A stretch of DNA of 64,000 nucleotides from Rhina ancylostomus (taxonomy: Eukaryota). Shown piece after piece: positions 10,463 to 61,419 of this stretch. The notes under the pieces were generated by a model. The model was not told the DNA's origin, did not search any database, and worked only from the letters and a program-made list of their open reading frames with translations. Each line of letters opens with the position of its first letter. Within the stretch, counting starts at the first letter, position 1. The position numbers and the translations under genes were made by a program. The stretch lies in contig JARFYF010000118.1 of assembly GCA_030265395.1 (NCBI GenBank), positions 24,765,277 to 24,829,276 on the forward strand. The letters run 5' to 3'.

Positions 10463-10594
<132 letters not shown>

Positions 10595-20900: not shown

Positions 20901-22730
20901 AAGGGGCTGTGTTTCAAATAGCCATCTTGTTGTCTCCGTGTTGTTGGCTTGGATCTCCTCTTTCGTGATGCCTTTAACCAATTCCACATTTTGTGTACTC
21001 TCATCAAATTGATCCAGGCGGCGGGTTTCAAACATCCACTTGTAGTGTTTGACATCACCGCTAATGACTTGCTCACGGCTTACTGTTTTGACTTGATGGC
21101 AGTGACCTGCACCATCCATGATAGCATAAAGGGGGACAGTTTCAAAGAGCACTCTGTTCTCGTTTACATTTCCAGCCAAGACTTCATGATTCTCAGTTGA
21201 GATGTCATCTGAATTTTTAATACTGTCAAGGGGAAGTGTTTCAAAGAGATTTTTGTAAGCTTTAACATCTCCCTTCTGAATCTCCAGTACTCTGGTGCTA
21301 TTGGAAGTCTCACTTTGTTCCTTGTTGATACTGTCTAGAGAGTAGCTTTCAAACACATGAGCCTTATGCTTCACATCTCCCCTTTCCTCTTCCGTCATAA
21401 CTTTTTTCAAGTGGCCAACTTCAAAGCTGTCTTTCAAAATTTCCATTGGCTGAGTCTCAAACAACCAAAGAGTAGAGTTCACGTTACCTCCAATTATTTG
21501 TTCCTTGGCAACCTCTTCAGATGGACTTTCTTTTAATGAGTCAAGAGGCTGAGTTTCAAAGAGCCAGCATTTCTTATTCACATCTCCTCCTTCTATTACT
21601 CTGACACTGGCTTTACTGTCTGCCTCCTCTGTCTGCTCGTTGATGGTATCCAAGGCCTGTGTCTCAAAGAGCCATCGTTTTTTGCCAACGCCGCCACCCT
21701 GTTGGGTCTCTTCCAGGGAGATGCCACGAATGATTTTCACTCTTGAGAGATCTCTGTTAATGCTGCTGAGGGGTTGTNNNNNNNNNNNNNNNNNNNNNNN
21801 NNNNNNNNNNNNNNNNNNNNNNNNNNNNNNNNNNNNNNNNNNNNNNNNNNNNNNNNNNNNNNNNNNNNNNNNNNNNNNNNNNNNNNNNNNNNNNNNNNNN
21901 NNNNNNNNNNNNNNNNNNNNNNNNNNNNNNNNNNNNNNNNNNNCTTCTGAACGCAGTTGCAATAAGCTGCTTTCTTCCATCGAGTTGCTCCGTCCCAAGT
22001 CACCCAATGGATGAGTCTCAAATAATAATTTGGTTCCTCTGACATCCCCTTTCTGTACAGGTTCCTTCAGAACTGCTTCTTGTAGATCATTCTCCTTGGA
22101 GTAGATTTTATTCAGGGAATCCATAGGCTGGGTTTCAAACAACCACAAAGCTGTGCGGACATCACCCTTTGTTTGTTCTTTTCCAATGCTGGAATTTGCA
22201 GAAAATTCTGAGTACTGGGAGCTAATATCATTTATTGTTTGGTTTTCAAACTTCCATGATGTGCTCCTCACGTCTCCACTGAGGATGGCCTCTTCTTCCT
22301 TCATCTTCTTAGTTGCTTGGTGATCTCCAATTGTGTCCAATGGCCAGTTATCAAATATCCAACGCATGGACTGGACCTCACTTTGAAGTGCTGCATCACT
22401 GTTGCCACGGACTCCAGTTGCTAAGGCAGCAGCCGTATGTTCAGCGTCCAGTACTTCGGCCCAATCCTCAGTGACCACCTCCTGCAAATTTTTCCTCAGC
22501 TCCGGGTGCATGTGCTTATAAAGCCTCTTCAATTCATTAATTTGTCGTTGCTGGTGGAACTTGACAAAAGTCTGATGTGGAGGGGGTGGGATTTTTTGAG
22601 GCTGCTCTTTCATTGTTATGTTTGGCTTAGTAGAAGCTTCAAGCAGATCAGGTGGCGGTGGTGGTAAAAAATCATCCTCCGCAGTCTGACTCATTTCTGA
22701 TGTTTGGATCCTATCCAAGTTTTGAGCCAT
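14904..22730 (-). CDS. XIRP1: Xin actin-binding repeat-containing protein 1, giant coding exon (2608 aa from the ATG at 22730)
   Basis: Acceptor ttttactaaag|ATGGCT. The N-terminus has FLPPPPP (EVH1 ligand) and [26 protein letters not shown] as in XIRP1. There are 25 visible GDVxxxxWLFETxPLD Xin repeats, a Pro-rich region and conserved C-terminal blocks. Two N gaps (21778-21943, about 17370) preserve the frame. Confidence 0.95.
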
Positions 22731-23019
22731 CTTTAGTAAAACAAGGTTACACATGAGGATTCATCAGCAATGGACCCTTGCTTCATGCAATATGGTTTAG
22801 TGGCAATCAAAGTGTAATTCAAATGGTTAATCAGAAACAATTTAAAAATAAAATGGATTTGTAGAAGAAAAGTATTATACCTTTCATGAGTGGTGTTGGC
22901 ACAGAACATGCAAAGTGAGTTGTCGAGAGGTGAGTATCAATACACAGCAAACCGTCCTCAGCTTTGCCGAAACTCATGAGGACATCTTTGCGTTATAAAA
23001 AGCAGCACAGTTAAGTTAT

Positions 23020-23312
23020 TCATAGAGTCAGACAACACAGAAACAGGCCCTTCAACCCAATGTCTCCACCTCGACCACCGACTCATCCTACTTCATTCTC
23101 CTCTCATTCTCATCAACTCCCCCAGATCAACTCATCAATTCCCCCACCACTCACATACATCCTAAGGGCAATTTACCTAGCAAGCCACACATCTTTGGGA
23201 TGTGGTCAGAAGCCAGGAGCACCAGGAGGAAACCCACATGGTCATAGGGACAATGTGCGGATGCCACAGAGACTGGGTGTTTGAGCTGCAGTTCTACTAG
23301 CTGTGCTGCCCC
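23020..23312 (-). mobile_element. tRNA-derived SINE (V-SINE-like core, CR1-type tail)
   Basis: tctttgggatgtgg...ggagcacc..gaggaaacccac..ggtca core and catagagtca...gaaacaggcccttc tail. Confidence 0.75.
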
Positions 23313-23569
23313 TAGACTTTTCCTCCAAAAAAATAGCAAGGTACACAAAAGAGGTGAAAGTGACATATTCTAAACAAGATTGCTCAGATTTGAATAAACT
23401 GTGTAGAGACTGTGGGCATGGTTATCTTTGGAATGTATTTGTGGACCTAACCTTCAGAATGAGGTGAATGCATTGGGAAAGTAAAGAGAACAATGACAAG
23501 GCAGGGACCTGGAAGATTCTGGGACTGATGTGCCAGGAGAGACTCCAGAATTAAGCACAAGACTATCAA

Positions 23570-24250
23570 CAAGAATTTCCATTTATATTGTGCTATTAAC
23601 AAAGCAATATCAAATAAAATATTTACAAGAAGATAACATCAAGAAATGTCAGGTAGATGATCAAAAACTTGATCAAAGAAAAATGTTTTAAGATGTGGCT
23701 TGAAACAAGTGTGAGACAGAGAATTTTTGAGATTAAGTCCTTGGCCCTCAATGGTGGAAGGAATTAATTCAAAGCTAAACAAGCAGAAGAGCAAGACTTG
23801 GAGCAAAGATTGTCTTACAGCCAAACAGGGTGGGGGGAGATCACAGAAACTGAAGGGCAAGGCCATGTAAGGAATGGAAAACAAGAATAAGAATTTTAGA
23901 ATGGGAAGCTATTATAAATCAGCCAATTATCACAAATTATTTCAATGCTCTTGAACAGGAGTTGGTGTGAGCGATGGGCATGAGAAATAGAATTTGAAAT
24001 GACCATGTTTATGGAGTGTAAAATGAGGAAGGATGGCTCAAGCATAGAAATCATTAAATCTAGAAGCAATAAATGTGTGATCAGTCACTGGACAATCAGA
24101 CAGAGGTGGAAACAGGAGGCCCTGGTCTTGGCACAGATGCATAATCTCTCTCTCACCCTAGGTTTGGATATGATGACCAGTTTCTGTATACTCTTAGCAA
24201 AAGAAAAACTATGTATGGTGGAAATCCAAACTAGAGTCAGGATATTTTGG
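23570..24250 (-). mobile_element. Old L2-like LINE 3' fragment
   Basis: aaaacttgatcaaagaaaaatgttttaag..g.cttgaa motif is shared with the fragments at about 39540-39880 and 44620-45130. Confidence 0.5.
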
Positions 24251-26744
24251 AAACAGAATGCGTCAGGGAGTAGCTGTGGAGAGAGAAAGAGAGTTGATGT
24301 TACGGGTCAATGATCAGTCAACATTCTAATGGATTTATCAGCCAGAATAGTGAAGGTCATTGACCTGATATGTTAGTTCTGTTTCTCTTTTCACAAATGC
24401 TGCCTGACCTGTAATGTTTTTGCAAATAGTGTGATTCAGTTTGGAGCAGTCATCCAGACGAGGGATGGGGTTAATGCACATGGAATGAAGTTTGTGACTC
24501 CTATCAAAGATGAAGACAATGGTTTGGGTTTTCCCTAAAAATTTAGTATTAACTAATTCTTTAAACTATATGTTTCACATTTTGGGAATTTAATGCTGGT
24601 GTCATCTGGCCTTTTCAAAAATGTGTGGCTGGTCTTCGTGTTTAGAATTCTCAAATCCTCTGCTAGCACTTTTGCATTGATAATATACCAGAATCTTCTC
24701 ACACCAAAGCAAAGGTAGCCTAAAATATCACTGGTAGTTGCTGATGCAAGTTCAACTGATCCAGCAATAGATTAGTGTCATTATTTGCTTAAAAACTGAC
24801 AGAATGCTTGGATCTGTTGGCTTTGACCAACTTTTTTTTTCACTGCTTCAGCTTTCCAGTCCAGCTAAGTGGCAAACCTAGGACACCTCCACTGCTGTAT
24901 TCCTCATCTACCTGCAGGGCCAGTGCCAGCTTAGCCTGGCACAAGTTCAGCAGACTCCTTAACATCCATGGGAAAAAGTTGTGGCAGCTAGCACATTAAG
25001 CAGAAGTTAATCTCCTTGATCCAGCTGATTTAATTATACATAAGTTTGATCATTTGTGAGTGTCAATAAATGCTTTTTATTAAAAATAATTTGTTTTATA
25101 ATTCCACCTTAATTTTATTTTTCACTTGTGCCTGAATGATTTGGGGTGATAGCGTTAATGGCTGCTTAGCCTGGAGATCGGGCCTTGCCAGGTTTCACAG
25201 TTATCTGGGTTTGAGCTGGAAATCTAGGCTTGAGAGGCTCTGTACTATGCAGGTCTCTCCAACTAACCAGGAGCAGGACTCCCAGTGGAACACCATGCCA
25301 AGGAGCATGTTTCAAGGGCAGGTGAACAGTGACCTTGGGTAGCTTGCCAGTCAGTGGGATTCCCCTCCCCAATATGTGTCTGCAACACTGTTAGAACACA
25401 ATTAGAAAGCTGGTGTCAATAGCCTTTTGGATCACAATAATCTCCCATTCTTTTAAAATATTGTTAATTAAATTACTGCAAATGTCACATATAAACATAA
25501 ACACACACTCACAAAAGTGTTGATACTTCCAACTCAAAAGTACACTAAAATTGCACACCATTTTGCATTAAGACCACATCATCTTTTGCATTAGTAGTCA
25601 GCATGTTATCATGTTTTGTCCAGCAAAAGGACAGGCAATAGAGCGTCCTTCTCAACTTGAATAGTATCAAAAAAAGATCATTGGAACATCACTAGGGTGA
25701 GGAACTGGTGAATGTTGATTTTATTACAGAGAGGGAGAGTGCAATATTAACATGATGAATTAAGAGCATTTCACAAGGTCTTTTTTAACTCTTGGTCACT
25801 GGTTTTCTCGTTGTACTGAATGGCAGCAATGACACAGACNNNNNNNNNNAATGGACCTAACTGCATTAACCACTAGCCAAAAATTAAGATTGGATACATT
25901 TTTTCTGGTGGAGGTTAAAGTGAAACAGTGATAGATTTTAAATTTTAAAAGAAGTGGCAATATAGTACCCACTGAGAACTGCCAAACTCATTTCATGAGT
26001 TTGATGTTACAGGTTATTAGTTACTGAATGCTGGACTTACAGATCCCAAAGGTATTCTTAATGGACAGTCTTAAAGATCAATAGTAATATAAAATCTAAA
26101 TTTTAAGTTTGTCTTCCTATAGGCAATATTAAACAATCAAGACACAAAATATTCATCCAAAAATGAATCTCTGTGGTTCCGATGTTTACGAGAATTGTTA
26201 AACATGAAAATGGAAGAAAGCAAATTGGTGTGGTGAACAACATTAACCCTCCTGTCCTGAAGTTCTGGGTAATAATAAGAGAGGATGGAAATATCGAAGA
26301 GGAACTCTGGAAGAGGAGGAAGAATGATCACTGATAGGAAATGGTTGCGCAATGCTGTGAGAGCCCCTCTTTGATAGAGCATTAGCAGATGTGACAACTG
26401 GGTGGCTACTGTGGGAGCTACTAAAAAGTGGAAACTACTGGAAGCCAAATTTAGGCAGGAAATAAACTAAAGTGTTGAGCACTCAGACAGTTGCAAAGCA
26501 ATCAATTTCAGTGGCATCAAACGCATCCATTTACCTCTATCTGCTGAGACTCTTTTGCTGCTTGTGGAGTACTGTCTTGAGAAGAAATAGTCTAAATTAA
26601 ATCAAAAACATTTCATAATTTAGAAAAGAACATCTTTCATAAGCCTGTTGAAAACACAGAAAGCCTATACAGACATAACCTACAGAGCAAACATTCTCAT
26701 TTTCATTAAACAATGGTTAGATCAAAAACAGAGCACTGCATTCT

Positions 26745-26845
26745 GTTCTGATGAAGGGTCATGGACTTGAAATGTTAACTGTTTCTCTGTCCACAGATGC
26801 AGCTTAACCTGCTGAATATTTCCAGCATTTTCTGTTTTTGCTGTA
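26745..26845 (+). mobile_element. Penelope-like element terminal fragment with hammerhead-like core
   Basis: CTGATGA-aGGGTC-atg-GACTT-GAAA-tGTTAAC-tgtttctc...cacagatgc...acctgctga..atttccagcattttctgtttt. Confidence 0.65.
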
Positions 26846-28274
26846 TTCAATTTTACTTGATACAAATTTAGGAAAGTTCTTGTGACGGTACAAAAAAAAG
26901 GTTTACTGGAATAGTTCCAGGGATGAAGGAATTTCAGCTCCTTCAGGATTAGACTGGAAAATCTGGAGTTGTTGTCCTTTGAGATTTGCTAGAGATTTTA
27001 TAAGGTTATGATGAGTTTATGTAGGGTAACAGAGAGAAGCTGTTCTCATTAGCAAATGGTTGTAGGATTAAGTCCATGTGTAATGTATATTTCTTGTTGA
27101 TTTCTAATCTAGAGAGAAGCTTTGTGCAGAGTAACACACAGGAAACATGAACAGCTTTAAAAGATGTCTCTTGTTCATTGAGTGTTATTCCTCGATTGCA
27201 TATGTGCCCAGAATGATAATACAGTTGATCAAATATTAACACGAGTTTGCAGCATTGAACAGTAGCTTGTCAAGAACAAGCACCTTCAGCGCACCACCCA
27301 ACTCCCTGTGGCTCTGTTTTCCAGTCTAATGACTGTAGCATCTCCCTTTCAAATCCAGCCCACTTTTCCAGCCCAGCACACAAAACCTACCATTGCTAAC
27401 CCTGCAATTCTATCTTTCTGAATCTTGTCACTTATTATTTCATTCCCTACTGTCAGACATGGTTTTAAAATTTGCATCATTCATCACTACTTCCCTGTAC
27501 CATTGAACATTTTTTGTACATATTGAATTCCAATGGCAGAAAACTGTACGGGCTTGCTGAGGTATTGTTTAAAACTAGGCATCATTTTGTCTATTCTTTG
27601 GGGGTGCAATGGAGCAAAGCAGACAAATTTCACTGAACTTGGCCCACTAGTCGGAGGATACCTGGATAGCTTGGGTAAAACCAGAAATGGTTTTGACACA
27701 TTGTACAAGCCAATAAGGTGCCTGATGTCTGTTTTGGAACTATACGAGGACCTGCTTTATCCACGTTAATGCATATTGGCAAGTGGCTACTATCAAATAG
27801 GAAACATATTCTTGAAGTTGACTAGAGCCAGGAAAATCAATCCTGTTTCCCCAAGCTCCATTGCAGTCCTGACAGATAATATTGTCTTTCCCCTGCTTGA
27901 CACTTACATGAGGGGTACTTCTGCTGAGACAAATGGTCAGTGATCATAAGATTATAAGATGATACTGGACAAAAGAAAGCTATTGGACTGTAGATGGTTC
28001 TTTGAAAGAGGATTTAAATTATTTCTATTCCCAAGGCCTTTCACCATGGCCCTGCATTTTTTCTCATTTTAAATATTTACCTAATAGACATTTAAAGGTT
28101 TGTGTTGAACCGATGTATCCTTTCAGATGCTGGATTCCAAATTGATAGGTGTCATAAAGACCAGAGGCTGTACTCATGAGGGATGCCATTTTGTTCCCTG
28201 TTCAGCTTGAAGAATAATTCTTTATCAATCCCCTCTGCTTGCTGTCTCTCTTCTAATTTCTTGTCTGTGATGCT

Positions 28275-28572
28275 GGGTGGGCACAGTAGTGTAGCGGTTA
28301 GCGTAACGCTTTACAGTGCCAGTGACCCGGTTTCAATTCCGGCCACTGTCTGGAAGGAGTTTGTATGTTCTTCCCGTGTCTTTGTGGGTTTCCTCTGGGT
28401 GCTCTGGTTTCCTCCCACATTCCAAAAAGATGTACAGGCTAGGAGCTGTGGGCATGTTACNNNNNNNNNNNNNNNNNNNNNNNNNNNNNNNGCAGACCCC
28501 AGAACACTCTAAGCAAAAGATGCATTTCACTGTGTGTTTCTATGTACATGTGACTAATAAAGATATCTCATC
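28275..28572 (+). mobile_element. Young tRNA-derived SINE
   Basis: Pol III A-box (tagtgtagcggt) and B-box-like head, a V-type core, and the tail tgtacatgtgactaataaagatatct. High identity to the copy at 33683-33991. Confidence 0.88.
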
Positions 28573-29439
28573 TTATTGGCTGTCCCCTTGACTCCATCGC
28601 TTTTAATTCTGCTAACAATATAATGCGGTACTTTATCAACACCTTTAGGAAGTCCACATAGTCAACATGAACTGTGCTGCCTTCATTCTCTGAAAGCCAC
28701 CTCTTGTGATGTGATAGGTGATAGCTTTGACAAACTTACTGAGATGATGTGGGATCAATTTTAAGCTCACACAGTGTGTGCTGCACTAATTCTGCAGTGC
28801 CCCACTTGTTCCAACAGGTGGCAGGTGTGCATCAAGTAAGGATATGAATTCACTGTCCAGTCAAGAAGTTATTTTAGTGACACGGACCAGAAACTGCCTG
28901 CACTATGGAAAAAAAGCTGTCTGACTGCTTGATTCTATGCTGAGCTTCTAAAGAGCTGCCACTGGCTGGGCAAACATTGAGCGGATTCGAGTGGGAGATT
29001 GATAAACCACTTTAGATTCATTAAAAAAAACAGACAGGGATAAAAATAGCATGGCATGAATGTACATGCTTAAGTTACTGAGTTTAACAAATACCATTGA
29101 ATCAGTTCTTTAAAAGGGATACAAGTTGTCCTCGTGGGAGATAATTAGTTAACCTGTAATTTGATTAGCAAGCAAGACCTTGCTTCTAAAATCCAAAATC
29201 CAGCCCTGTTAAAGTATGTGCTGTTCAGACCTGATGCAAAATTAACCACTCTGCCTGATATATATAAAACATAGCCAATTCTGTCCAATGTGTAGCATAA
29301 CAAAGTAAAATTTGCAATTATTTAATGTCTTTCCTGTACTTTAGGATGACTTAAAACACCTTGTAGTCAATTAATTACTTATGAGATACATATAATTACT
29401 TCTGGGGTATCTTTTCAGGATTATAGAATTAATTACAAA

Positions 29440-30400
29440 AATAGATTAAGTGAGAGGGCAAAACTGCAGCAGGTTTCATTGCAAGTTTGAGAGCAATGGC
29501 TATTCATTTAGGAATTAAAACACAATATTTTGTTTTAAATGTTGACATGCTAGGAATTCTTAAGGTCCTCAGATGTTTTGGATACATGTACACTGATCAC
29601 TAAAGTATAGCTGTCAGATACAAAAAATGTCAGAAAGTGTGAAATTTTGCTACTGATCAACAAAACTCTAGTTGGACCACATCTAGAATACTGTCTGTGG
29701 TTCTGGTGTGCAGCTCAGATTTGCAGACTACAGACAGGGCTTCAAGAATTAAATTATAAAGAAAGATTATATAAAAAGGGCATGTCCTCCCTGAAATTAA
29801 GAGGTGATTTCATATTGGAATTTTGATAGAAATCCACAAGGTAAATTGGGAAACTTCTTCCAGTGATGTAGCTGAAGGGGACATTCACAACTCCTACAAA
29901 TGGGAACAGCTTAGGTGGGAATCTTGGCTGGCATGGACCGGTTGGGCTGAAGGTCCTGGTTCCATGCTGTATGACTCTAAGAAAATACAAGCAAGAGTAG
30001 GCCACACAGCCCTTCATAGCTGCCTCGCCATTTAACATGATGATTGCTCATTTGCCCCAGACCTCCGCTTCTGTGCCAGATCCTTATAGCCCTCAATTTG
30101 CTGATTTTTCAAAAATTATCTACTTCCCTTTTAAGTACCTCCAATGACAGACTCCATAACTCTCTAGAGCAGAAAATTCCAGAGCTTCACTACCCTCTGC
30201 ACAAAGATCCTATGTACCTCAGTCTTAAATAACTATTCCCCAAGTTTGTGACTCGGTCCCCTCTTTCGAGATTCTAAACTAATGGGAACATTTCTATACA
30301 TGCCCTGTTATGCCCCTGAAGGAACTTATATCCTTCAATAAAATCATCCCTCATTCTTCTAAACTTCAAAGAATATAGATCAAATTTCTTCAGAAAATTA
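29440..30400. mobile_element. Two CR1 3' fragments, tail-to-tail (+ 29440-29980; - 29980-30400)
   Basis: The + copy ends ccatgctgtatgactcta. The - copy encodes LYSLKFRRMRDDFIEGYKFLQG. Confidence 0.7.
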
Positions 30401-30429
30401 AGCACACCATGTCTGTATGCAGCAAGACC

Positions 30430-31170
30430 TAAACAATATTCAGGCATGGGCTGATAAGTGACAAGTACCATTTGCACCAGAGATGTAGGCAATGAAGATC
30501 TCCGATGAGAGACTCTTGACGTTCAGTTGCATCACCATCNNNNNNNNNNNNNNNNNNNNNNNNNNNNNNNNNNNNNNNNNNNNNNNNNNNNNNNNNNNNN
30601 NNNNNNNGAAAGTCTGGTGTATTCGCTGCAGGGAAGAAGTGGTTATCCTGTAGAGGGTGACTCCTTTCCTGACACACCTAAGACTTTTATCATCAACAAG
30701 GTGCAAGTCAGGAGCGTGATGAAATACGCTCTATTTGCTTGGATCAGTGCAACTGCATTAACTCTCCAGAAGTTCGACACCATCCAAGACAAAGTAGTCT
30801 GATCAGTGCCCCTTCCACCAAAGGTGCCCAGTTGTTGCAGTGTGCACCATCTACACATGAACTCTAGTTACTCACCTTGTTACTCTGGGAACATCTCCCA
30901 GCTTATGAAGAAGGGTGTTAGTCATATGGGAGTATTACTATTTGCGTGTTCCCCTCCAAATCACACATCATCTTGATTTGAAAATAAATCATTATTGATG
31001 GGTCAAAATCCTTGAACTCCCTACCCAACAGCACTGCAAGAATACTTTCAATCTGAAGGACTCAGGGATTCAATAAGATGGCTCAACGCCACCTTTTCAA
31101 AGGGAATTACAGATAGCCAATAAATACTGGCCATACTGGTGATCCCAGATTCTGAGAAATGAATAAAATA
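30430..31170 (+). mobile_element. L2/CR1-group LINE ORF2 3' fragment
   Basis: Encodes NKVQVRSVMKYALFAWISATALTLQKFDTIQDK and ends agccaataaatactggcc...gaataaaa. Confidence 0.75.
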
Positions 31171-31852: not shown

Positions 31853-31986
31853 ATACTTCACTGAGGGGTCTGCTTCAGATTTAGACAGATATATAGCTGA
31901 CCTCTCTCTGACAGAGATGACCTCTTGTTCTAGCAGTGGCTGGTTATTTCTCTTTGGCGTCCTTGGATACAATAACCTCTCCTCAT
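31853..31986 (-). CDS. XIRP1: XIRP1 long-isoform upstream coding exon (134 nt, phase 1 to 0)
   Basis: Acceptor cctttccttttgcag|AT and donor TAT|gtgagt. Encodes (D)EERLLYPRTPKRNNQPLLEQEVISVRERSAIYLSKSEADPSVKY, with an EPLIN/XIRP2-like SVKERMAxYQ motif. In frame with both neighbours. Confidence 0.72.
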
Positions 31987-32029
31987 CTGCAAAAGGAAAG
32001 GCTTTTACTATCAAATCTCAGGAAAGGTT

Positions 32030-42385: not shown

Positions 42386-42396
42386 ATGTTTGGGAG

Positions 42397-45600: not shown

Positions 45601-48600
45601 AAAACAACTTTGGAACTTAATGGTAGGACACAATTTATGCGTGCTAAACAGCATGAAAAAGGAAATTTTCCCTAGTAAAGACACCAGCATCAGAAAATTG
45701 TGTGCAGCACATCCCCTGCTCTTGGTATTGATAGCTTGTGGGCAATATTCCACAATCCAGGCAAACTTAAAAAATTGGCCCTGCAGCAATGGACAAGTAT
45801 TGCAAGACTTGGCAGCCCCTTGAAGAACGAGGGTAACAAGTGCCTGAGAATATCATCAGCTCCCAGTCAAAAACCATCCAAACTTTGACCTAAAGTGCAT
45901 ATTATCACTGGATCAAAATCTTTGAATTCCTGACGGAACAGCATTATGGGAATATCTTCAGGACATAAAACATAACTTTCAGTTGCATTTCAACAATAGT
46001 AATCTCCTGTGACCACCACTTTCTCAAGAGTAATAAGATAGAGCATTACATGCTAGCCTTGTCCCATCACCGGATAGGAACTTTACAATATTACATACTT
46101 GTAACTGTAAATATTTCATACATCATAAAGTCATGGAGTCATATGTAGTGAAGATTATAAAATACTTTTTTTATAAAGTATGCAAACACTATAAAAAAGG
46201 CACCCTTTGTCCTGCAATATAACATAATGGCTGAAACCTGGTATATTCTCATGGGACAGCTGGCCAGTCAACCAGTAATGAGAAATAGCTTTCTATAATA
46301 CTAACTGACATCTCATCAACATTCTACATCAGAGTAGGCAGTGGAGTAGGTTGCATTACAGTTGAAAAAAACTTGGATGCAGACACCAAGAGCTATCAGA
46401 TTTTATAGCTCAACATTTATCTCTTCAGTCATAGATTACTCAGTTCATTTAGAACTGTGAGCTAATGTTTCATCTCACAACCACTGAGTACAATGCTGCT
46501 AAAAAAGGCAGGGGTTTCCTCTAGCAAGCTCTCAAATTTAGCAAGGTAAGGAGATGTTGAAAGGAAAAGTGTTCTGCGCTAATTTCCTCCAACACAACAG
46601 GACCAATGCTTAATAGCATGTCAACGGCTTCAAAGTGCTTTCAGAAGATCTGAAGCAGGGAAAGGCACTATAAAAAACTGATTTCATTGGGAGAAAGATC
46701 AGCTTTGATATTTTTGCCCTTAAGATCGATTTCTTCCTATTGCAGAAGGGAATTCAGGCTATCAAGTCCATGCTGGCTCCCAGCAGAGCAATCCCACTAG
46801 TTTCATTCCTCCTCTCTTTATTTTCCTTGCAGCTCTACAACTTATTCCCTCACACATGCCCTTTGATTATTTGACTCCCTATGACAGATACAAGGCAGCA
46901 GAGGAGACCAATAAGGAAATGATCAGCAAGGAACTTCAAATTCAATTAGACACAGTGGCAAATGGAAAAAAGTAAGATGGGTAAGAAGTTTCAAACTCTT
47001 AGGCTCCTTTTGAAGAAAGTATTTGAGATGGTGATGTAAAGATGAGCCTTTAGGGCAGCCATGGAATCATACATCATAGAAACAGGCCTTTCAGCCCATT
47101 ACATCCATGCTGACCATCAAGAACCCATCTAAGTATACAAGTAAGTGAATAAGTAAATAGTGTAGTATGTAAACAAAGTGATAGTAGAAACTACTTATCA
47201 TTCTGGTCATTCTCTGAACAGTCATCATGCCAGAACTCACTAAATTCAGATTTTTAGCATTTCACCAAACTTAAGACTCCAAACCCCTATTAGTGGGTCA
47301 GATACTTGATATCGTTGGTCCCCACTGTTTTGCCAACCCACTTCCAACTGCATGAACAGGTGCACATGGTGTGTAACCCAATGAAAAACAATCATTTTCA
47401 GGATCTGTCCATCAGTCCAGTTTTCAGAAAGTTAGCATTCAATAAAGTAAATCAAAATGCCCAAAGGTTTAAGGAGGCAGATTAAAAATGTTTGACAATA
47501 GAGAGCAGGTAATTACTGAGGTTAAATGGAACTAGTCACTGCTGGGTAAAATATGGCAGGTCATCTTTATGACATCATCAGCTATCAGGTGAGGCAGATA
47601 TGAACTTAAAGCTCCAAGACCGATTATCCTTGTAAAACTAGTTTTCAAATAAAAATAACTTGGTGTTCGAAAGTAAAAAAATCTTAGCATAGAAATAAAT
47701 GTTAGCAAAATAAGTGTACAATATTCTTCTACCTACTAACAAGCATCACTGAGTTCATTTTAAAATGAGTTAAAGCTTCTGTTAAAATTTCTAGGCTCCT
47801 ACAATCCATAATTTAACATGATGTCAAGAACCCCAGAAGAATTGGTTTCCCAAATCTATTTGTGCCCTGAAACTTAAGACTAGATCTCTAACTGGAAATG
47901 TTTACGGCATTATTTATCTTTCTGATGTGTATCATAAAATTGGATCACTCATAGGACTAGATATTAAGTGGATATTAAGTGCAGAGAGAAACAAGAATTA
48001 TTTTGAAGTCAATTAATGCAGAATAATGGGTTTCCTGTCATGCACTAGGAACAGTATCACTGGGAACATAAGAATGAAAAAGTTTGAAACAACTAGGAAG
48101 GGTAGGAGGACATTAGAGGCCAAAAGGCACTTCAGAGACCAAAAAACAAGATCGCAGACAAGAGACCAGAGACCAGAGCTGGGGGAGATCTAGTGGTGGC
48201 ATCCATTAGATCTATTGTAGCATCATAAGATGATCAGAAGGATTGGTGGATGAAGATTGGAAGGGAGTTCGATCTCAGCATTAAACTGGATTCAATAGGT
48301 AAAGTAAAAGCACTTTCCTTCTGGATCCAAATTCCTTGTTGCCCTTTACCTATTGGTCTTCATAATGCCTAGGTTAGGTTTGAAATTGTTGTTAAATATA
48401 ATTCATACAATCTTTTGTAATATTTAAATACTGGAGATGGCACAAAGTTGTGATTCAGATTTTTAAACTTTTTAAGCATTCCACCCTTCTCAAATCTGCT
48501 TGACATTCATCTGTAGGAGACCATATCTTCCCCAAATCCCACCCCTCACAATTACCAGAACAACCTTCTCCACTTCAAACATTTGGGTCCCATTGAACTT

Positions 48601-49534
48601 GGCTTATGTACTTCAGAAATAGTTTATTGCCTATAAAGCACATTGGGATGATCCAAGCTTGTGAAGGTTGATATTAACAACTCTTTCACCAACTTTTCAT
48701 TCTGTTCCTCACTGGCCCCACAGACACACTGCCTTCCTTCACAATAGTTTCCAAAACACCTATGACACCCTCTTGATGTCTTCTTACTTGTTCTCTCATG
48801 TAATGCTAAGACAATACATTTATATTGCAAAATTACAGGTGAAAACATCTCCTTAGTGCTGCCCCAGCCTCATTTCTATTTGTCTCTTCATTGCACCCCC
48901 ACTCAAATAGAATTATATTTACTCCTTTAATCACTTCAGAACATTTTATGATCAATCTCCTTAGAAATGATATAGGTAAGGTGAGACTTAACTGAAATGT
49001 TCTAAATCATTCACTATTTTCATCGAGCAAAAGAAGATTCTTATAAGATTATGAGTGGGCCATTAAGCAGAGAGTCAGAGCAACAATAAAACATACTTTT
49101 TTTAAGGCAGGAAATTCTTATGATTTAGAAATCCCTGCCTGATGATGGAAGCAGATTCTACAGTATCTTTTGAAAAGGAGTTAGATGCATACAAACAGGA
49201 AAAATTAGTTAGGCAATAGGGAAAGAGAGTAATTGGTAAAATATTCAGCCTGACACAATGAGCAGGATGGCTTCTTTTGTGCTGTAATTAAGGTGATGTG
49301 TATTATGATGAACTGCTTAACGTCAGTTCTGATATAAAATTTTGATACTTTAAAGTTTAGTCCTGTGATGGATATTCACTATCCAGGGTCAGGAGGCTTT
49401 TTGCCAAACTCAGCTTTTTAAGCACAGCAGAAAAATCTAAGGTTCAAGATGTTTATTGTTAATCTTTAACTGGTACTCTTTCCTCATCCTCCAGAGAAAC
49501 AGTACTGTCCAGGATCAGAAAGCCCATCGTTGAC

Positions 49535-50055
49535 TTAGACCATAAGACACAGGAGCAGAATTGGGCCATTCGGCCCATCGAGTCTGCTCCGCCATTTGAT
49601 CATGGCTGATATATTTTTCCCTCTCAACCCCATCCTCCTGCTCTGTCCCCATAACCTTTGACATCCTTACAATTAAAGAATCTATTAACCTCCGCTTTAA
49701 ATATACCCAATGACCTGGCCTCCACAGCCATCTGTGGCAATGAATTTTACAGCTTCACCACCATCTGGCTAAAGAAATTCCTCCTCATCTCTGTTCTAAG
49801 GTGACATCCTCCTATTCTGATGCTGTGCCCCCTGGTCCTAGACTCTCCCACTACTGGAATCATCCTCTCCATGTCCACTCTATCCAGGCCTTTCAATATT
49901 CGGTAGGTTTCAATGAACTCCCTGCTGATCCTTCTAAACTCCAGAGAGCACAGGTCCAGAGCCATTAAACATTCCTCATACATTAACCCTTTCATTCCTG
50001 GGATCATTCTTGTAAACCTCCTCTGGACCCTCTCCAATGCCAGCACATCCTTCCT
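49535..50055 (-). mobile_element. Young CR1 LINE 3' end (continues into an N gap)
   Basis: ORF 50046-49747 reads LALERVQRRFTRMIPGMKGL.YEE...RTRGHS...RRNFFSQ, followed by a 3' UTR hairpin region. Confidence 0.92.
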
Positions 50056-51127
50056 NNNNNNNNNNNNNNNNNNNNNNNNNNNNNNNNNNNNNNNNNNNNN
50101 NNNNNNNNNNNNNNNNNNNNNNNNNNNNNNNNNNNNNNNNNNNNNNNNNNNNNNNNNNNNNNNNNNNNNNNNNNNNNNNNNNNNNNNNNNNNNNNNNNNN
50201 NNNNNNNNNNNNNNNNNNNNNNNNNNNNNNNNNNNNNNNNNNNNNNNNNNNNNNNNNNNNNNNNNNNNNNNNNNNNNNNNNNNNNNNNNNNNNNNNNNNN
50301 NNNNNNNNNNNNNNNNNNNNNNNNNNNNNNNNNNNNNNNNNNNNNNNNNNNNNNNNNNNNNNNNNNNNNNNNNNNNNNNNNNNNNNNNNNNNNNNNNNNN
50401 NNNNNNNNNNNNNNNNNNNNNNNNNNNNNNNNNNNNNNNNNNNNNNNNNNNNNNNNNNNNNNNNNNNNNNNNNNNNNNNNNNNNNNNNNNNNNNNNNNNN
50501 NNNNNNNNNNNNNNNNNNNNNNNNNNNNNNNNNNNNNNNNNNNNNNNNNNNNNNNNNNNNNNNNNNNNNNNNNNNNNNNNNNNNNNNNNNNNNNNNNNNN
50601 NNNNNNNNNNNNNNNNNNNNNNNNNNNNNNNNNNNNNNNNNNNNNNNNNNNNNNNNNNNNNNNNNNNNNNNNNNNNNNNNNNAATATCCCACCTTGGTAT
50701 GGTGGGGGGGGGGGGGTGAGACAGCTAAGCCCCTTCAGAAAAGAGACTAAAGTAATTAAGTAAATTAGTCTTTGTATTATAGGTTGAAATAGCATAATGT
50801 CCCTAAAGTGAGGGTACTAATATAAACTACAAGACTTAAAGTCTTTGCTTAAGTTTAAGTTTAGGACTCTAGAATGGGTACATTCTATATCATCACAGTC
50901 CTTCATCTTCCTGTCACAGTTTTGGTTGAAGCAATGTCCTGCAATAGCATTTATAATGTGTCTCTTTCTTGCCACCTCCATTCAAGATGGAAAGGCCCAT
51001 GTCTTTCCTCTCAGTCCTCTGAAAATTGGGTGATTTTCCTTATGAGTTGGCTTTGCCTCATGCCAGTGAGCTACAGTCTCTAACATACCCATGCTCTGCA
51101 TTTGATATTGCTTCAGCTGCTACATAC

Positions 51128-51206
51128 CCAGCTCTTCCTTTGGCATTGCTGGATATTGCTGTGGTTCTCCTTCTTCCGGCAGAAGCTTCTGATTCAATGT
51201 TGGTTC
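51128..51206 (-). CDS. XIRP1: XIRP1 long-isoform upstream coding exon (79 nt, phase 0 to 1)
   Basis: Acceptor tttctctgcccacgttgacag|GAA and donor CTGG|gtatgt. Encodes EPTLNQKLLPEEGEPQQYPAMPKEEL+G and exactly bridges the phases of the 55.4-kb and 31.9-kb exons. Confidence 0.65.
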
Positions 51207-51399
51207 CTGTCAACGTGGGCAGAGAAATAATGACATTTTAATGAGAGCTAAAGAATGAGTAGAATAGAAAGAAATTTCTTGGCAGAGGGGCCAAGATCTT
51301 AAAAGTCCCACATGGAGGTGGAAATAAAAATAGGAACTATTAATAAGCGTAGAGATCAGTGTAGTTGAAATATTATCTTTGCTTGACAGAACATGATGT

Positions 51400-53490
51400 G
51401 GAACAAAGGTCATTTTGCTTTGAGCTAAGAAATAATAAAGGACAGAAAATATTGGTGGGAATTATTTGTAGGCCACAAAATAGTAGTTGTAGCATTGGGT
51501 GTAACATAAATCAGTAACCATGAGAGACCTTAACCTGCATTGAGACTGAATGAATCAAAAGAAAGATGAATTCCTGGAATGTCCATGAGATGGTTTTTCT
51601 ACATAAAAAATGTAGAGAAACCAGCTAGGAAGAGTAATTTTAGATCTTGGTATGTGCAATGAGAAGTGATTAATTGATAATCTTGTCAAGGGGATTTTGG
51701 CAGAGAGTGATCATAATATGACAGAATTTGACACTGAGTTTGAAAGTGCTATGGTTCAATCTAAAACCAGGGTCTTAAATCTAAATGAAGGAAACCATGA
51801 ATATATGAGAGGAGAATTGGCCACGGTTGATTGGGAGAACACTATGATGATGGTCAGGCAACAGTTAACATTTAAAGAAATAATGAACAAGTTGTAAAAG
51901 AAATTTTGTCAAAGCACAAACATCCACAAGACAAATTATGAGAAATTGGCTGATGAGAGAAATTAAAGATAACATTAAATCCAAGGAAGAGGCCTATAAA
52001 GCTGCTAGGAAAAGCAATAGGCCTGAAAATTGGGAGCATTTTAGAACTCTGTGGAGAGGAACCAAGAAATTGATAAAGGCAGANNNNNNNTAGAATATGA
52101 GAATGAACTGATAAGAAACAAAAAAAATGTGACAGCTTTTACAGATACACAAAGAGGAAAAGATCAGTGAGGGAAAGTGTGAGCCACTTACCCACAAACA
52201 AGAAATTTATAATGGGGAGTAAGAAAATGACAGAGGAATTAAACAATTACTTAGCATCTGTCCTTGCAGAAGACACAAAAAACTTTCCAGATAAATCAGA
52301 GAATCGAGGATTTAGCGAGAATGAGGAAATGAAGGAATTAAATCTTTGTCAAAAAGCAGGTCCAGGGAAGTTAGTGTGCTTGAAAGCTGATAAATTCCTG
52401 GGACCTGATGAGTTGTTTCCCCAGAGTTTTGGCTTCAGAACTAATGGATGCTTTGTATCACATTCCAAAACTCTATAGATCCTGGAGTTGTTCCAGTTGG
52501 TTGATGGGTAACAAACTGATCCTGTTACATAAAAAGGGAGGTTTGTCTGTAATGGAAGATGTAATAACATAACACCTTGAAAAGAATAATAGGATTGAGC
52601 AGGGCCAGCATGGATTTACAAGAGAAAAATCAGGTTTGACTAATCCACTGGAATTCTTTGATGATGTGACTGGTAGAATAGATAAAGGAAAATCGGCAGA
52701 AATGGTGTATTTGGATCTTTGGAAAGTATTCACAAAAGTCGTGCCCAGAAGATTGATCACTAAGGTTAGAGCACATGGAACTAGAAGTAATGTATTGGCA
52801 GAGACTGAGAATTAGTTATCAGACCAAAAGCAAAGAGTGAGAGTAAACAGATCATTCTCAAGTTGGCAGGCTGTGACTAATGGGATACTGTAGGGATTGA
52901 TGCCCGAGCCCCAGCTTTTTACATCAACAACTTGGCAGAAATGACTGAACGTCATACTTCCAGGTTTGCTGATAATTCTAAACTAGGTGGGATTGTGAGA
53001 ACAAAAGGAGGATGATGTAAAAGAGGTTTGAAGGAGATCTTGACAAGTGGATTGACTGGGTGACAACTTGCCGATGGAATAAATAGTGTAAAATTGTGAA
53101 GTTATCCACTTTGGTTCACGTAATAGAAATGCAGAGTACTTGTTAAATAGTGAGAGACTGGGTAGTATTGATTCTCAAAAGGACTTAAGTACATTTGCAC
53201 ACAAATCAATGAAGGCCAACATGTAGGTACAGCAAGTGATCTCATCACAACTTTAAAAAGCTCTGAAAGTTTAGACAGGTTAGATGCAAGAAAAATGTTT
53301 CCTCTGGCTCAAGTGGCCACAGTTTGAGAATAAGATATTTAGGACTGAAATAAGAGATTTCTTCACTCACAGGGTGGTGAATCTTAAGAATTCTCTATTC
53401 CTAAGGCTGTGGAGGCTGTCATTGTATTTATTCAAAGCAGAGATCAATAGCTTTCTGGAAATTAAGGAAATCTAGGGGTTATGGAGATAG
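51400..53490 (+). mobile_element. CR1 LINE ORF2 remnant of about 2 kb (endonuclease end, RT, 3' end)
   Basis: Fragments SDHNMTEF, GPDE, QHGF, VYLDL.KVF.KVP, FADNSKLGG, FFTHRVVNL, with many stops. Confidence 0.9.
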
Positions 53491-53499
53491 TCCTAGATT

Positions 53500-54200
53500 G
53501 GTGAGGGAGTGAGTCAGGTTGTTGGACTTGGTGATGGGTAACAGCAATTTAGAGTCTTATTATTGCTGTTCAGGATTGGCTGTGGTTATCAGTGCACTGG
53601 GGTCATGTAATCACCAGTTGAGGTNNNNNNNNNNNNNNNNNNNNNNNNNNNNNNNNNNNNNNNNNNNNNNNNNNNNNNNNNNNNNNNNNNNNNNNNNNNN
53701 NNNNNNNNNNNNNNNNNNNNNNNNAATCACCAGTTGAGGTTGGATATGCATTATTGGTAAGTCAGGGCCCTGCCCTTGTCAGGGTAGTTGGTGGGGAAGG
53801 TTAGAGTCAGGGTCTTGTGATCACCGGTCAGGGTTGGTGATGGGCATCAATGAGTCAGGGTCGGGTGTGAGGCAGTGAGTCAGGATCATGTGATAACTGG
53901 TCAGGGTTGTGGGGTTGGGGGTGTGGGTAAAATTGGCGAGACCAGGTCCAATAATCACTGGTCAGGATCATGGATCAGTGGATTGTGACCCACAGTTAGC
54001 TGCATGGATTAGGCAGCAGTAGGTTGTGGGTATGTGACTGAAGATCTAGAGGGGATCAGTCAGTGGGTGAATGGGTTCCTGTCAGTTGAGCAGTGGGTGG
54101 AAGAGGCAGAACAAGATGCTCAATGATGCATACGTGAGTGGGAGGGTGGAGTTGTGTGGCTGGGGTTCAGTACCAAGGCAAGGGTTAGGTAAGCAAAAGG
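53500..54200 (+). repeat. G/T-rich degenerate tandem repeat
   Basis: Recurring gtcagggt / gtgatcac(c/t)ggtcagg units around an N gap. Confidence 0.5.
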
Positions 54201-55389
54201 ATGTCTTCTGGATTTGGGTTTCCAACAGCAGACTGGGACCTGCTCACAGATGGCACCTTTAATTGTACCCTTATTAAGCACAGTACTATGAAATCATGTT
54301 TATGAGTGCCCAATGACACATGTGCTGTGGGACATGCCTGATTTTCCCCTGACGATGCTTTAAGTGTGCATTACACCAGGAATAACAGTGTACGTCCAAT
54401 GAAGAATATGGCTCATCTGCACAAGCTTGATTTGCAATGGTAGAACATGGTCAAATTTCCAGAGGCAGATTCAATTAGGAAACCAGCTGTTGTGTTTCAT
54501 TTCAGAAAGCCAATTATCATCCATGTAAAGACTATTCAAACTGTTAAATGCAACATAGTTCTGTAAAAACTATCACATTTAAGTACATTTAAAAGCAAGT
54601 AAATTCATTCAAGTAATTTAAAAAAATCTAAATTATCTACTACTTAGTTGATTGCAGTTGTTGCCTTCTATTGAAATTAATGGGAGCTGTGTTGCAGTGT
54701 CGGGATTCCAGACAAGAATCCTGTGTCGACTGTGGCACAGGATTCTCATGTGGATTCCCCACTGTGAGTGGTAGAAAACTCCCTCACCGGATGTCATAAG
54801 GCATCAACCATGGAGCACAATTGGGAAAACCAACAGAAATAGCAGGCAACAGCTTCAGGAACACCACATGTCTATGTGTGTGGAAACATAGAGGTTGTCC
54901 TCGTTACGATGAGTAATGTAGACAAATGCCATCATGTTTGCTGAGACTTCCCTACAATATCCAGGCTGTAGTAATCACAATGTGCAGATCCATTGCAGCT
55001 GAATGTATTCGGCTTGTGACAGTGTATTTGTCACAGGAGCAGTGGTTGGATAAGGATTACAGTGATAGGATACAGGACAGACGAAAGGCCTTGGGCCACA
55101 ACCATGTAACACGAGTACCTGCTTCAATTTTACCGAATTTGAACAACACTGACAGTAGAGTATGAGAACAATAAATCAGTTTGCAAAAATAAACATGTAC
55201 CTGCTAAAACTAGAATTTACTTCCAAAGCTTGATCCCTTGCTACTGGACCTTGTATGTATAAAGGGGCTCCCACACTATAAAACCATCATCTGAGCCAGG
55301 CCATAACACCCCACAACTACATGAGCTGACTAGCCCTTCATGCAGTGTTATAATAAATGATCAAATTTCTGAAGTGAATGCTGACTTAC

Positions 55390-55782
55390 CTTATTGACAG
55401 TGCTTTCAGGGTCGGTGATACCAAATGGTCTGTTCATAGCTTCCTCCAGCTCCTCAGGGCAAATGCCTATGCTGTATCTTCCTTCATTCATCCTGCACTG
55501 GAATGGCTTTGAGCTTGGAGTTCTGGGACTTTCATCATTTATTATGTTGTTTGATTGGCCAGTTTTGACCTTTGACACCACTGATGCACATTGGGAATTA
55601 CTTTTGTCAACAGGAATCTCAAAGCAAGCCTTCAGCATCCTTATGTCGATGTTAATGTTCTTAATTTGAGACAGGTTACCCATTGAATTACACCTCCTTG
55701 GAGGGAAGTTTGGTGTCTGAATCACCTTCATCTCAAATATCCTTTTCAAAGACTCCAGCTTGTTCTTGGATGGAGACGACAT
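55390..55782 (-). CDS. XIRP1: XIRP1 long-isoform upstream coding exon (393 nt, phase 0 to 0)
   Basis: Acceptor gttttttctaag|ATGTCG and consensus donor AAG|gtaagt. Holds 131 open codons with LESLKRIFE and IRMLKACFE motifs. Confidence 0.72.
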
Positions 55783-56604
55783 CTTAGAAAAAACAGTTCT
55801 TTTAATGCCATCTAAAAAGGTCACTTTTAATGCAATTAACTTTTTAATAAAATTAACACAACCGATCTTCTCCCTTTTTTTTGACATTCAGGGATACAGT
55901 AATCAGGAGACCACTCCAGAGGCCATATATCACATCTGAACCATGTCAATCAATGTTGGAATGCTATTTGAATATTGGGCCTTCACAATCCAAGGTGGCC
56001 AAGTATATTAGACTATCAACAATTGTCAATGTTTCCTTGTTCCCTAAGGCATTTGTTAACTTTTGTTTGGCTGGAGATAGTCCCCAGAAGCATGACATGA
56101 AGAATGGCAGAAACTAATATTGCAGTAAAGATGCCCCATTCACAAATCACCCCTAAAACCATATGTGACATGATCACAGTTTTGTTAGCTCTCAAGGTTA
56201 TGAAGATTTTAACTGTTATTGAATCTCTGACATTCAAAGACACTTAAAAACTTTTTGAAATGAAGTAAACAATTACAAAATTAACATTTAAAATTATATG
56301 TTAAGGATAAAAATAGCTTTCAAAAGATTAAAACATTTGTAAATAATTAAAAATGGAATTAAACCAAAATACTTTTATTTAACAATGAACTTCCCCTTTA
56401 CTCTCTTATGCACAGCCCTTCACTACCCAATAAAATATAAGTGATTGTGGATTCTGCACTAGGTCTAACCTGGAGCAGATTCTGAGTGCCAATTTCCCAT
56501 CATTGATGCTGGGGAATTTTAACTGGACCAGCAGTGGAGCAGGTAATAGGTTTGGTAATTCAAAACTGCTGTAGGTTTGGGATTTCCACCTCTCCATTTC
56601 AACT

Positions 56605-56980
56605 TGTAAATTAGTAAATTGGTTTATTATTGTCACATGTACTGAGGTACAGTGAAGAACTTGTTTTGCATACTGTTCATACAGATCATTTCATTACACA
56701 GTACATTGAGGTAGTACAGGGTAAAACAATAACAGAATACAGAATAAAGTGTTACAGCAACAGAGAAAGTGCAATGCAGGTAGACAATAAGGTGCAAGGT
56801 CATAACGAGGTAGATTGTGCAATCAAGAGTCCATCTTATCAAACTAGGGAACCGTTCAATTGTCTTATAACAGCAGGATAGAAGCTGTCCTTGAGCCTGG
56901 TGGTACGTGCTTTCAGGCTTTTGTATCTCCTGCCTGATGGGACAGGGAGGAGAGAGAATGTCCGGGGTGGGTGGGGTCTT
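56605..56980 (-). mobile_element. LINE 3' end (Rex/Babar-like)
   Basis: ggtttattattgtcacatgtac...gaagctgtccttgagcctggtggtacg; the same family recurs at 58104-58240 and 950-1040. Confidence 0.75.
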
Positions 56981-57494
56981 TAATGGAGAACTAAATTATA
57001 CATCTTCCCAACCTTTTCCACCTCCTGGGTTAATAAGTTAAAGCACCTTCACCTTTACTAATCTGGAATTACCTCTGTCACTGTCCCTGGGCCCATCAAA
57101 ATTCCTTTGGTTGTCCAGGACAGCACAAAGATGGGGTAGTGATGAGCGACAAAGGGTTAAAGCAACCAAAATTCCTTGAGAGGCCACCAAGTGTTTGACC
57201 TAATTCTGCCAGCCTTGAAATTTAAAAAAAACAATCTAATATGCTTGAAACTCACAAATGGACTCTATATTACCCGAGGCCAATTTTCAAACTGGTGATC
57301 TGTGGAGTGAAAACATCTTCCTCTCCGATTCTCATTGCTGGGTCAGGGACTATTAACTGGGTCAAGGCGCAGCGAGTCCAAGGGAATGTGCTGTCGAGCA
57401 GTCAGTTCACCAATACTTCCCATGGGAGGACCAACCTACACACTGGTAGCTCATTCCCTGTCTCCACAATTCAGGGGAAGTCCCATCGACTTTG

Positions 57495-57787
57495 GACAGC
57501 ACAGTGGCACAGTCAGCAGAGCTGCTGCCTCACAGCCTCGGTGAGCCAGGTTCAATCCCGGCCTCTGGTGCTGTCTGTGTGGAGTCTGTACGTTCTCTCT
57601 GTGACCAATTAAGTTTCCCAGGTGCTCTGGTTTCCTCCCACATCCCTAAAGATAGGTACTTGGATGGGAGGGGTTTGGAGGGATATGGTCCAGGTGCAGG
57701 TAGATTGGACTAGGCAGAAGATCAGGTCAGCATGGACTAGATGGGCCAAAGGGCCTGTTTCTGTGCTGTAGTACTCTACGACTCTAA
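57495..57787 (+). mobile_element. tRNA-derived SINE with CR1-derived tail
   Basis: Head cagtggcacag...gagctgctgcctcacag...ggttcaatccc and tail gggcctgtttctgtgctgtag.actctacgactcta. Confidence 0.8.
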
Positions 57788-57824
57788 AAGACATGCAGGT
57801 TTGTGAGCCACTGTAAATTACAAG

Positions 57825-58240
57825 AAGGCTACAGATGTGAGGTAGATCGGCTGGCTAAGCGGTGTTGCAACAACAACCTCGCACTCAACGTCAGCAAGAA
57901 CAAGGAATTGATTATGGACTTCAAGTAGGGGAAGTTGGGAGAACACACACCAGTCCTCATTGAGGGGTCAGCAGTGGAAAGGGTGAGCAGCTTCAAGTTC
58001 CTGNNNNNNNNNNNNNNNNNNNNNNNNNNNNNNNNNNNNNNNNNNNNNNNNNNNNNNNNNNNNNNNNNNNNNNNNNNNNNNNNNNNNNNNNNNNNNNNNN
58101 NNNACTGTCCTTGAGCCTGGTGGTACGTACTTTCAGGCTTTTGTGTCATCTGCCCGATGAGAGGGAAGAAGAGAGAATGTCTGAGGTGGGGGGTCTTGTT
58201 TATGCTACCTGCTTTAGCAAGGCAGTGAGAAGTATAGACA
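57825..58240. mobile_element. LINE RT C-terminal fragment (+) and 3' segment (-), separated by a gap
   Basis: The + frame reads YRCEVDRLAKRCCNNNLALNVSKNKELIMDF. Sequence after the gap matches 56885-56980. Confidence 0.7.
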
Positions 58241-58822
58241 GCTTGGACCTACAGTATTTGGCACTTACCATTAAGGTCAGGGCCATTTCATTATCAGCAG
58301 TTAATTACAATGTGCATTTTGTAAAGGCATTGACCTCATTTGTCAAGAAGGTCCATAACTGTGTCTTAAGCCAGATATTTATGTGGCTTAGATATATTAT
58401 GTGCAGACATCTTAAGAATACCTATGTAACCAGAATATAGGAGCAGAAAATGGAAATGATAGAACAGAGAACATAGAAAAACTATAGCACAATTCAGGCC
58501 CTTCAGCCCACAAAGCTGTGCCAAACATGTCCCTACTCTAGAAATTACAAGGCTTACCCATAGCCCTTTATCTTACTCAGCATAGAAGAACAACTCAACA
58601 TAGAAGGACAAATATTGACAAAGATCAAATATTGTTTTCAAGAAGACAACAGCCAAGGGTCTCAGACCTGAAATGTTAACTCTTTTTCACTTTCTGTAGT
58701 TGCTGCCTGACCCACTGAGTTTTTCCAGCAGTTTCTATTTTTAGTTCAATAGCCATTAACGTATTCCATGTCAGATAATGCAATGCTTTTTCTGATGTGT
58801 AAGCCCTAGAATCATTACTCAC

Positions 58823-58861
58823 CTCTTGTCTTTCCTCTGATTCTTGGCTTCTTAGATTCAT
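58823..58861 (-). CDS. XIRP1: Candidate first coding exon of the XIRP1 long isoform (MNLRSQESEERQE)
   Basis: Consensus donor GAG|gtgagt in phase 0, in frame with 55782. There is a possible acceptor ttctcacag| at 58874 and a TATAA-like motif at about 58915. Confidence 0.45.
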
Positions 58862-61335: not shown

Positions 61336-61419
61336 NNNNNNNNNNNNNNNNNNNNNNNNNNNNNNNNNNNNNNNNNNNNNNNNNNNNNNNNNNNNNNNNN
61401 NNNNNNNNNNNNNNNNNNG

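Follow-up and report, generated by a model that had tools for sequence, protein, structure and literature searches.

Six conserved upstream coding exons of XIRP1 in the ray Rhina ancylostomus and their predicted splicing to the Xin exon

The DNA described here, called the window, is a stretch of 64,000 nucleotides (nt) from the ray Rhina ancylostomus (GenBank assembly GCA_030265395.1, contig JARFYF010000118.1, positions 24,765,277 to 24,829,276 of the forward strand). It holds the XIRP1 gene, whose Xin repeats are coded by one large exon on the minus strand. Upstream lie six intact coding exons (277 amino acids, aa), conserved in sharks, which together form a leader; in some transcripts they are probably spliced onto the Xin exon, giving a predicted isoform of 2885 aa. 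The feature is real and conserved, and it would represent an ancestral layout of the XIRP2 type that human XIRP1 is without, and not a new hybrid. A long isoform is already present in database models of other vertebrates, and the layout itself is known from XIRP2.

Gene identity and structure of the leader

The Xin-repeat exon occupies 14904..22730 on the minus strand and codes for 2608 aa from its own ATG, which stands at the acceptor. Most names among the best 120 of its 906 protein matches are XIRP1. Over residues 40-262 it is 99% identical to the XIRP1-like protein of Pristis pectinata, with other rays and sharks next in the same set. The genome also has a separate XIRP2-like Xin locus, 42% identical, on another contig (C1). 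By these similarities, with no tree built, the gene reads as the ray ortholog of XIRP1, closer to annotated XIRP1 than to XIRP2. The exon contains two gaps of N (166 nt and 6 nt). In the proteins of Pristis and Mobula the 166-N gap is spanned by exactly 56 residues, and the frame is therefore safe across it.

E1, the full E2 and E6 were located by searching with the XIRP1 model of the shark Heptranchias perlo (XP_067834867.1). The leader exons are as follows; fractions are identical residues in models of Heptranchias, of the shark Heterodontus and of Pristis.

E1, 336-451 nt past the window end (contig 24829612-24829727), (-) strand: exon with the true ATG and 116 nt of coding sequence, ending in phase 2, in frame and with a GT donor; 26/40 identical to the Heptranchias N-terminus (tblastn, E 5e-14).
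E1-E2 intron, window part, 58875..64000, (-) strand.
E2, 58823..58874, (-) strand: internal exon of 52 nt, phase 2>0, CAG acceptor and GTGAGT donor; Heptranchias 13/18.
E3, 55390..55782, (-) strand: 393 nt, phase 0>0, containing LKRIFE and LKACFE; Heptranchias 59/118, Heterodontus 63/128, Pristis 88/98.
E4, 51128..51206, (-) strand: 79 nt, phase 0>1, both junctions shared by the Pristis models; Heptranchias 14/26, Heterodontus 17/26, Pristis 23/26.
E5, 31853..31986, (-) strand: 134 nt, phase 1>0, with the SVRERSAIYLSK motif; Heptranchias 28/42, Heterodontus 28/45, Pristis 44/45.
E6, 26535..26591, (-) strand: 57 nt, phase 0>0, the last exon before the Xin exon; Heptranchias 9/19, Heterodontus 8/19, Pristis 17/19.

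E1-E6 add up to 831 nt (277 aa); their phases agree, their splice sites and frame are intact, and joining them to Xin yields 2885 aa. A preliminary description of the window had chained four minus-strand pieces to the Xin exon: 58861-58823 (39 nt), 55782-55390 (393 nt), 51206-51128 (79 nt) and 31986-31853 (134 nt). All four have GT donors, AG acceptors are present at the 393-, 79- and 134-nt pieces and at the Xin exon (22730), and the 645 nt (215 aa) are free of stops, giving 2823 aa up to the stop that ends at 14904. As a gene model this chain is incomplete and is replaced here by the six-exon one. Its 39-nt first exon is the 3' part of the 52-nt internal exon 58874-58823, whose CAG acceptor stands 13 nt upstream of the supposed ATG, and its junction 31853>22730, not supported as the main form, skips the 57-nt exon 26591-26535, which had been missed. 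It is very improbable that the 2823-aa product (ATG at 58861, E6 skipped) is the main long isoform. It is in frame, and E6 is phase-symmetric and could be skipped, but the methionine at 58861 is absent from the Heptranchias and Heterodontus proteins, a conserved ATG exon lies upstream, and E6 is part of the longer Pristis model as well as of those of Heptranchias and Heterodontus. E6-like pieces occur ahead of Xin in two more shark models in GenBank.

For each of nine phase classes, the 36-kb intron span offers 12-26 pseudo-exons (AG..GT, 40-299 nt) without a stop. Chaining in frame is by itself weak evidence because of this abundance, and the case for the leader is carried by homology rather than by phase.

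Conservation of the leader

The RefSeq XIRP1 model of Heptranchias perlo (2890 aa) matches the ray gene collinearly through each of the six exons and then continues into Xin; it has the same six-part leader, joined to Xin. Against the 215 aa of the four-piece chain it is 51% identical over 219 columns (E 4e-50), with extra sequence at the front and before Xin. Identity to the leader of the ray is 147/261 for Heptranchias, 149/274 for Heterodontus, 172/188 for Pristis and 72/243 for an eel (Gymnothorax). Every leader exon aligns in both sharks. The claim of the preliminary description that the upstream exons remain under selection while the tail of the gene decays is borne out, by conservation across chondrichthyans and by the lack of any disabling change (see below).

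When the Heptranchias leader was used as a HMMER query against 1.84 billion proteins, three were found at E<=0.001 (Heterodontus, 281 aa; Pristis, 151 aa; Gymnothorax, 413 aa), and a further Pristis isoform of 206 aa was recovered via its protein cluster. A search with E3 among proteins of 231-2000 aa gave no match, and one with the Heptranchias leader among 3302 candidate proteins of 1589-5058 aa returned only the query itself. The Heterodontus protein (XP_067887538.1) and the Pristis gene LOC127574366, listed as separate 'uncharacterized' genes, consist of XIRP1 leader exons.

Among the 120 listed XIRP1 matches, a long leader is found in 25, one of them from a shark and 24 from turtles, crocodilians and birds. 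The E5 motif is present in 25/25 of these models and the E1/E2 motif in 22/25. The alligator, turtle and bird models (mostly about 2730-2880 aa) share leader motifs only. Neither mammals nor teleosts are among the named proteins in this set. The hybrid isoform that had been suggested is not special to the ray lineage; the layout is of the XIRP2 type, with long models elsewhere.

The gene models disagree on where E6 leads. In the Heptranchias model Xin follows it. The Heterodontus model stops two residues past E6 (PA-stop), and the last exon of the window, read straight from E6, gives PP-stop, so that splicing to the last exon fits Heterodontus. The Pristis model reads through the E6 donor, and the eel model consists of the leader and an intact LIM domain with no Xin. 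Pristis isoform X2 has an alternative terminal exon whose counterpart in the window, at ~45595-45518, contains three stops; this exon is not conserved.

Relation to XIRP2 and to the EPLIN class

XIRP2 (zebrafish xirp2a/b, mouse Xirp2) resembles the present gene in having short coding exons, a large Xin exon and two LIM/C-terminal exons, as far as the available text of the sources goes (PMC3280289; PMC10259482). The XIRP2 locus of the same genome has a motif exon at phase 1>0, and its LIM exons are split at the same point as those of the window. When a profile of ten XIRP1 leaders was compared with the 8302 open frames of a 200-kb region surrounding XIRP2, the top match was an upstream exon with SLKERLAMYQAA. 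This exon has 137 nt and phase 1>0, against 134 nt and phase 1>0 for E5, and is identical to it at 15/36 positions; the E value of the pair (4e-5) is optimistic, as the pair was chosen after the search. The comparison is suggestive but falls short of proof; E5 is likely a paralog of the XIRP2 upstream exon. The other five leader exons, including that with LKRIFE/LKACFE, had no match in the profile search around XIRP2, and apart from E5 the leader differs from that of XIRP2 in not being detectably similar.

LKRIFE, LKACFE and SVRERSAIYLSK had all been likened to N-terminal motifs of EPLIN and XIRP2. The likeness may hold for the SVRERSAIYLSK exon, which matches an XIRP2 exon; for LKRIFE/LKACFE homology to EPLIN or XIRP2 is not supported. 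A comparison with the LIMA1 leader gave no match in a region in which 33,987 of 100,000 bases are N. That LKRIFE/LKACFE might be degenerate Xin repeats (PF08043) was rejected: with a matrix of 86 repeats the best window scored -15.4, a value reached by 883/1000 shuffles. Pfam found no Xin in the Heterodontus or Pristis leader models. The eel model resembles LIM/LIMA1 protein clusters at 0.92, with low recognition, and the Heterodontus model gave only leads <0.9.

Several observations weigh against the reading of an ancestral leader spliced to Xin. The leader is 54-56% identical to the sharks, against 80-86% for the Xin repeats, and between sauropsid leaders and that of the ray only short motifs can be aligned (blastp E about 0.5-3). 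Taken by itself, the match to the XIRP2 exon lacks significance (HMM E 0.53), and E5 as a query against the whole genome retrieved nothing but E5. Among 22 chondrichthyan Xin proteins (a count that omits one partial protein) the full leader is present in one and an E6-like piece in two more, while 19/22 have neither. RefSeq assigns the leader exons of Heterodontus and Pristis to the separate genes without Xin named above, and the Pristis models start inside E3, so that E1, E2 and part of E3 are missing from them. The long forms cited in support are without exception gene models from databases. In 300-residue bins the Xin exon itself is 51-86% identical to Heptranchias/Heterodontus.

LIM exons and decay of the tail

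Downstream of the Xin exon the gene continues with the following exons.

LIM exon 1, 10464..10594, (-) strand: 131 nt, phase 0>2, open; Pfam LIM at 26.9 bits, above the cut-off of 22.9.
Last exon, proximal part, 9303..9666, (-) strand: second half of the LIM domain, a decayed EPLIN motif and a WPP motif, then a stop.
Last exon, distal part, 8050..9302, (-) strand: decayed C-terminal domain with at least 10 stops or frameshifts.

The window tail contains a single LIM domain, above the Pfam cut-off and with its ligands complete. LIM exon 1 is identical to paralogs and to the eel protein at 18-21/35 positions, and a second in-frame acceptor for it is found at 10588. If Xin is skipped, E6>10594-10464>9666 gives an uninterrupted frame of 441 aa, in which 8/8 zinc ligands stand at canonical spacing. 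The LIM tail had been called broken, and this is correct for the distal last exon, which is decayed, and incorrect for the LIM domain, through the whole of which the frame is open. The tail aligns to the last exon of a LIMA1-like gene (E 2e-7) and of XIRP2 (E 7e-4) in the same genome, where the XIRP2 counterpart is an intact open frame of 496 codons. In the 22 residues after the last zinc ligand, taken as the EPLIN motif, the window is identical to three paralogous loci at 5-6/22, and these to one another at 16-19/22. In the second LIM half the corresponding values are 5-7/16 and 10-12/16; the eel protein is left out of both counts. A LIMA1-like locus (contig C81, ~2278000-2279400) and a probable LIMD2-like locus (C58, ~30637250), both named from sequence, have LIM and EPLIN motif intact.

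Over its 1616 nt the last exon carries no fewer than 11 stops or frameshifts, 10 of which lie past the WPP motif, and the count is a lower bound. In ten intron controls the count was 12-25 and in shuffles it averaged 20.8, against which a tail with 11 disablements is only partly decayed. The leader has 0 disablements in 831 nt, where 5.7 would be expected at the tail rate (P(0)=0.0035, on the assumption that both have been relaxed for equally long). Unlike the leader, the LIM product appears relaxed, because identity in the EPLIN motif and the second LIM half has fallen and the distal part has at least 10 disablements.

Two alternative accounts of the leader bear on these data. In the first, the six exons would be kept mainly for a product without Xin, either E1-E6 joined to the LIM exons (441 aa, a truncated EPLIN-like protein) or a chain ending just past E6 (about 280 aa), with Xin translated from its own start. 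The open 441-aa frame with all its zinc ligands, the match of the Heterodontus PA-stop to the PP-stop of the window, the eel model of leader and LIM, and the 19 chondrichthyan Xin proteins without a leader piece all favor it. Against it stand the losses in the EPLIN motif, the second LIM half and the distal tail, and the Heptranchias and sauropsid models, which splice the leader to Xin; on balance this account is considered unlikely, though not negligibly so. In the second, the exons would be a recent relic in the ray lineage, functional in ancestors and in sharks, now relaxed and as yet without a disabling change. The leader differs from Pristis at 16/188 residues (8.5%), slightly above any bin of the Xin exon (2-8%), and intron divergence to two relatives is 61/1705 and 95/1497 letters in a DNA comparison within 21950-28300, with which near-neutral change is compatible; the truncated Pristis models would also fit. 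All six exons with their splice sites and frame are intact, E5 is nearly identical to Pristis, and the probability of no disablement at the rate of the tail is low, which makes a relic improbable.

The XIRP1 model of a Phrynocephalus lizard (3584 aa) continues into a LIM domain, and there too the motif after LIM is eroded. A Latimeria XIRP1 protein is titled 'LIM domain-containing protein', yet only Xin was seen in it. These lizard and coelacanth models hint that LIM exons may persist behind XIRP1 in bony vertebrates.

The EPLIN class (LIMA1, XIRP2, LIMD2; PMC3305314) likewise has a single LIM domain. The window differs from it in that the 22-residue motif after LIM is largely lost, and XIRP1 is not named as a member in the available part of that paper. 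The window also differs from XIRP2 in its decayed EPLIN motif and C-terminal domain, both of which are intact in XIRP2.

Predicted products and evolution

The preferred reading, splicing of the leader to Xin in some transcripts, involves alternative starts and a skippable Xin exon, which would give a protein of Xin only and, as a likely second product, the 2885-aa form with the leader. Of the two, the Xin-only protein, with the ATG at the first codon of the Xin exon (22730) as its start, is probably made more often. The leader is likely to be an arm that is disordered for the most part, apart from a few short helices at its conserved motifs; a single-sequence AlphaFold prediction of the Heterodontus model placed helices only at 33-44, 106-111 and 240-252, at low confidence (pLDDT 47). 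By analogy with the N-terminal part of XIRP2, it may add contact with, or targeting to, the actin cytoskeleton to the Xin-repeat protein. The N-terminal part of mouse short XIRP2, including the LIM domain, is reported to co-localize with F-actin in the available text of PMC10259482, and an actin-related role of the leader would follow from this likeness. The leader exons may persist through continued use in the long form, and perhaps in a short form without Xin, while the LIM/C-terminal output is being lost.

Contigs on 21950-28300 from the one run guessed to be RNA cross the Xin acceptor and the intron and look genomic; no joint at an exon boundary occurs among the 15 listed of 566, and they are silent on expression. 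High-copy interspersed repeats lie in this intron at ~23010-23220, 24280-24410 and 26740-26840, with very high contig depth in four of four runs.

A wider history can be put forward tentatively and may well be wrong in part or whole: XIRP1 may have had a dual output like that of XIRP2 in the jawed-vertebrate ancestor, later dismantled piecewise. The eel would retain the leader together with an intact LIM. Sharks and rays would have kept the leader and a LIM frame that is still open though its motif is eroded (441 aa here), sauropsids the leader, and human only the Xin exon; the present ray would still make the 2885-aa and the truncated LIM forms.

Published accounts, in the portions available, treat XIRP1 as a gene with a single coding exon. 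The human coding region is described as lying entirely in exon 2 (PMC13267782) and zebrafish xirp1 as one large exon, with xirp2a/b having short exons and long and LIM isoforms (PMC3280289). Long and short splicing of XIRP2 is described in zebrafish (PMC3280289) and mouse (PMC10259482). Human and zebrafish XIRP1 have the same large Xin-repeat coding exon as the window and differ from it in being described as this single exon with intraexonic splicing, upstream coding or LIM exons not being mentioned in those portions (PMC13267782; PMC3280289). The statement that mammals lack the long isoform agrees with what one paper (PMC13267782) says of human, the sole mammal covered. A paper on Xin evolution (PMC2478706) nowhere uses the words exon, shark or LIM in its available text. 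In the literature searched, neither upstream coding exons nor LIM exons of XIRP1 were the subject of any paper, nor were the predicted long models described, which does not establish their absence from print.

If long and LIM isoforms in the style of XIRP2 are made from XIRP1 outside mammals, knock-outs of the Xin exon and size assignments on blots in fish and birds may miss products, and XIRP1 would neatly illustrate how a duplicated gene loses its modules step by step. The 'uncharacterized' RefSeq shark and ray genes are tied to XIRP1 by the present comparison. No new mechanism is revealed.

Other features of the region

Long open frames in all six frames at 49747-50816 stem from a gap of 627 N (50056-50682) and are not a gene. 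On the plus strand, ~17 kb before the window start, lies an open frame of 176 codons that resembles the first exon of an SLC22-type transporter; Pfam gave nothing for it at E 0.1. A reverse-transcriptase fragment (RVT_1, E 8e-6, below the cut-off) on the minus strand outside the window is likely a LINE remnant.

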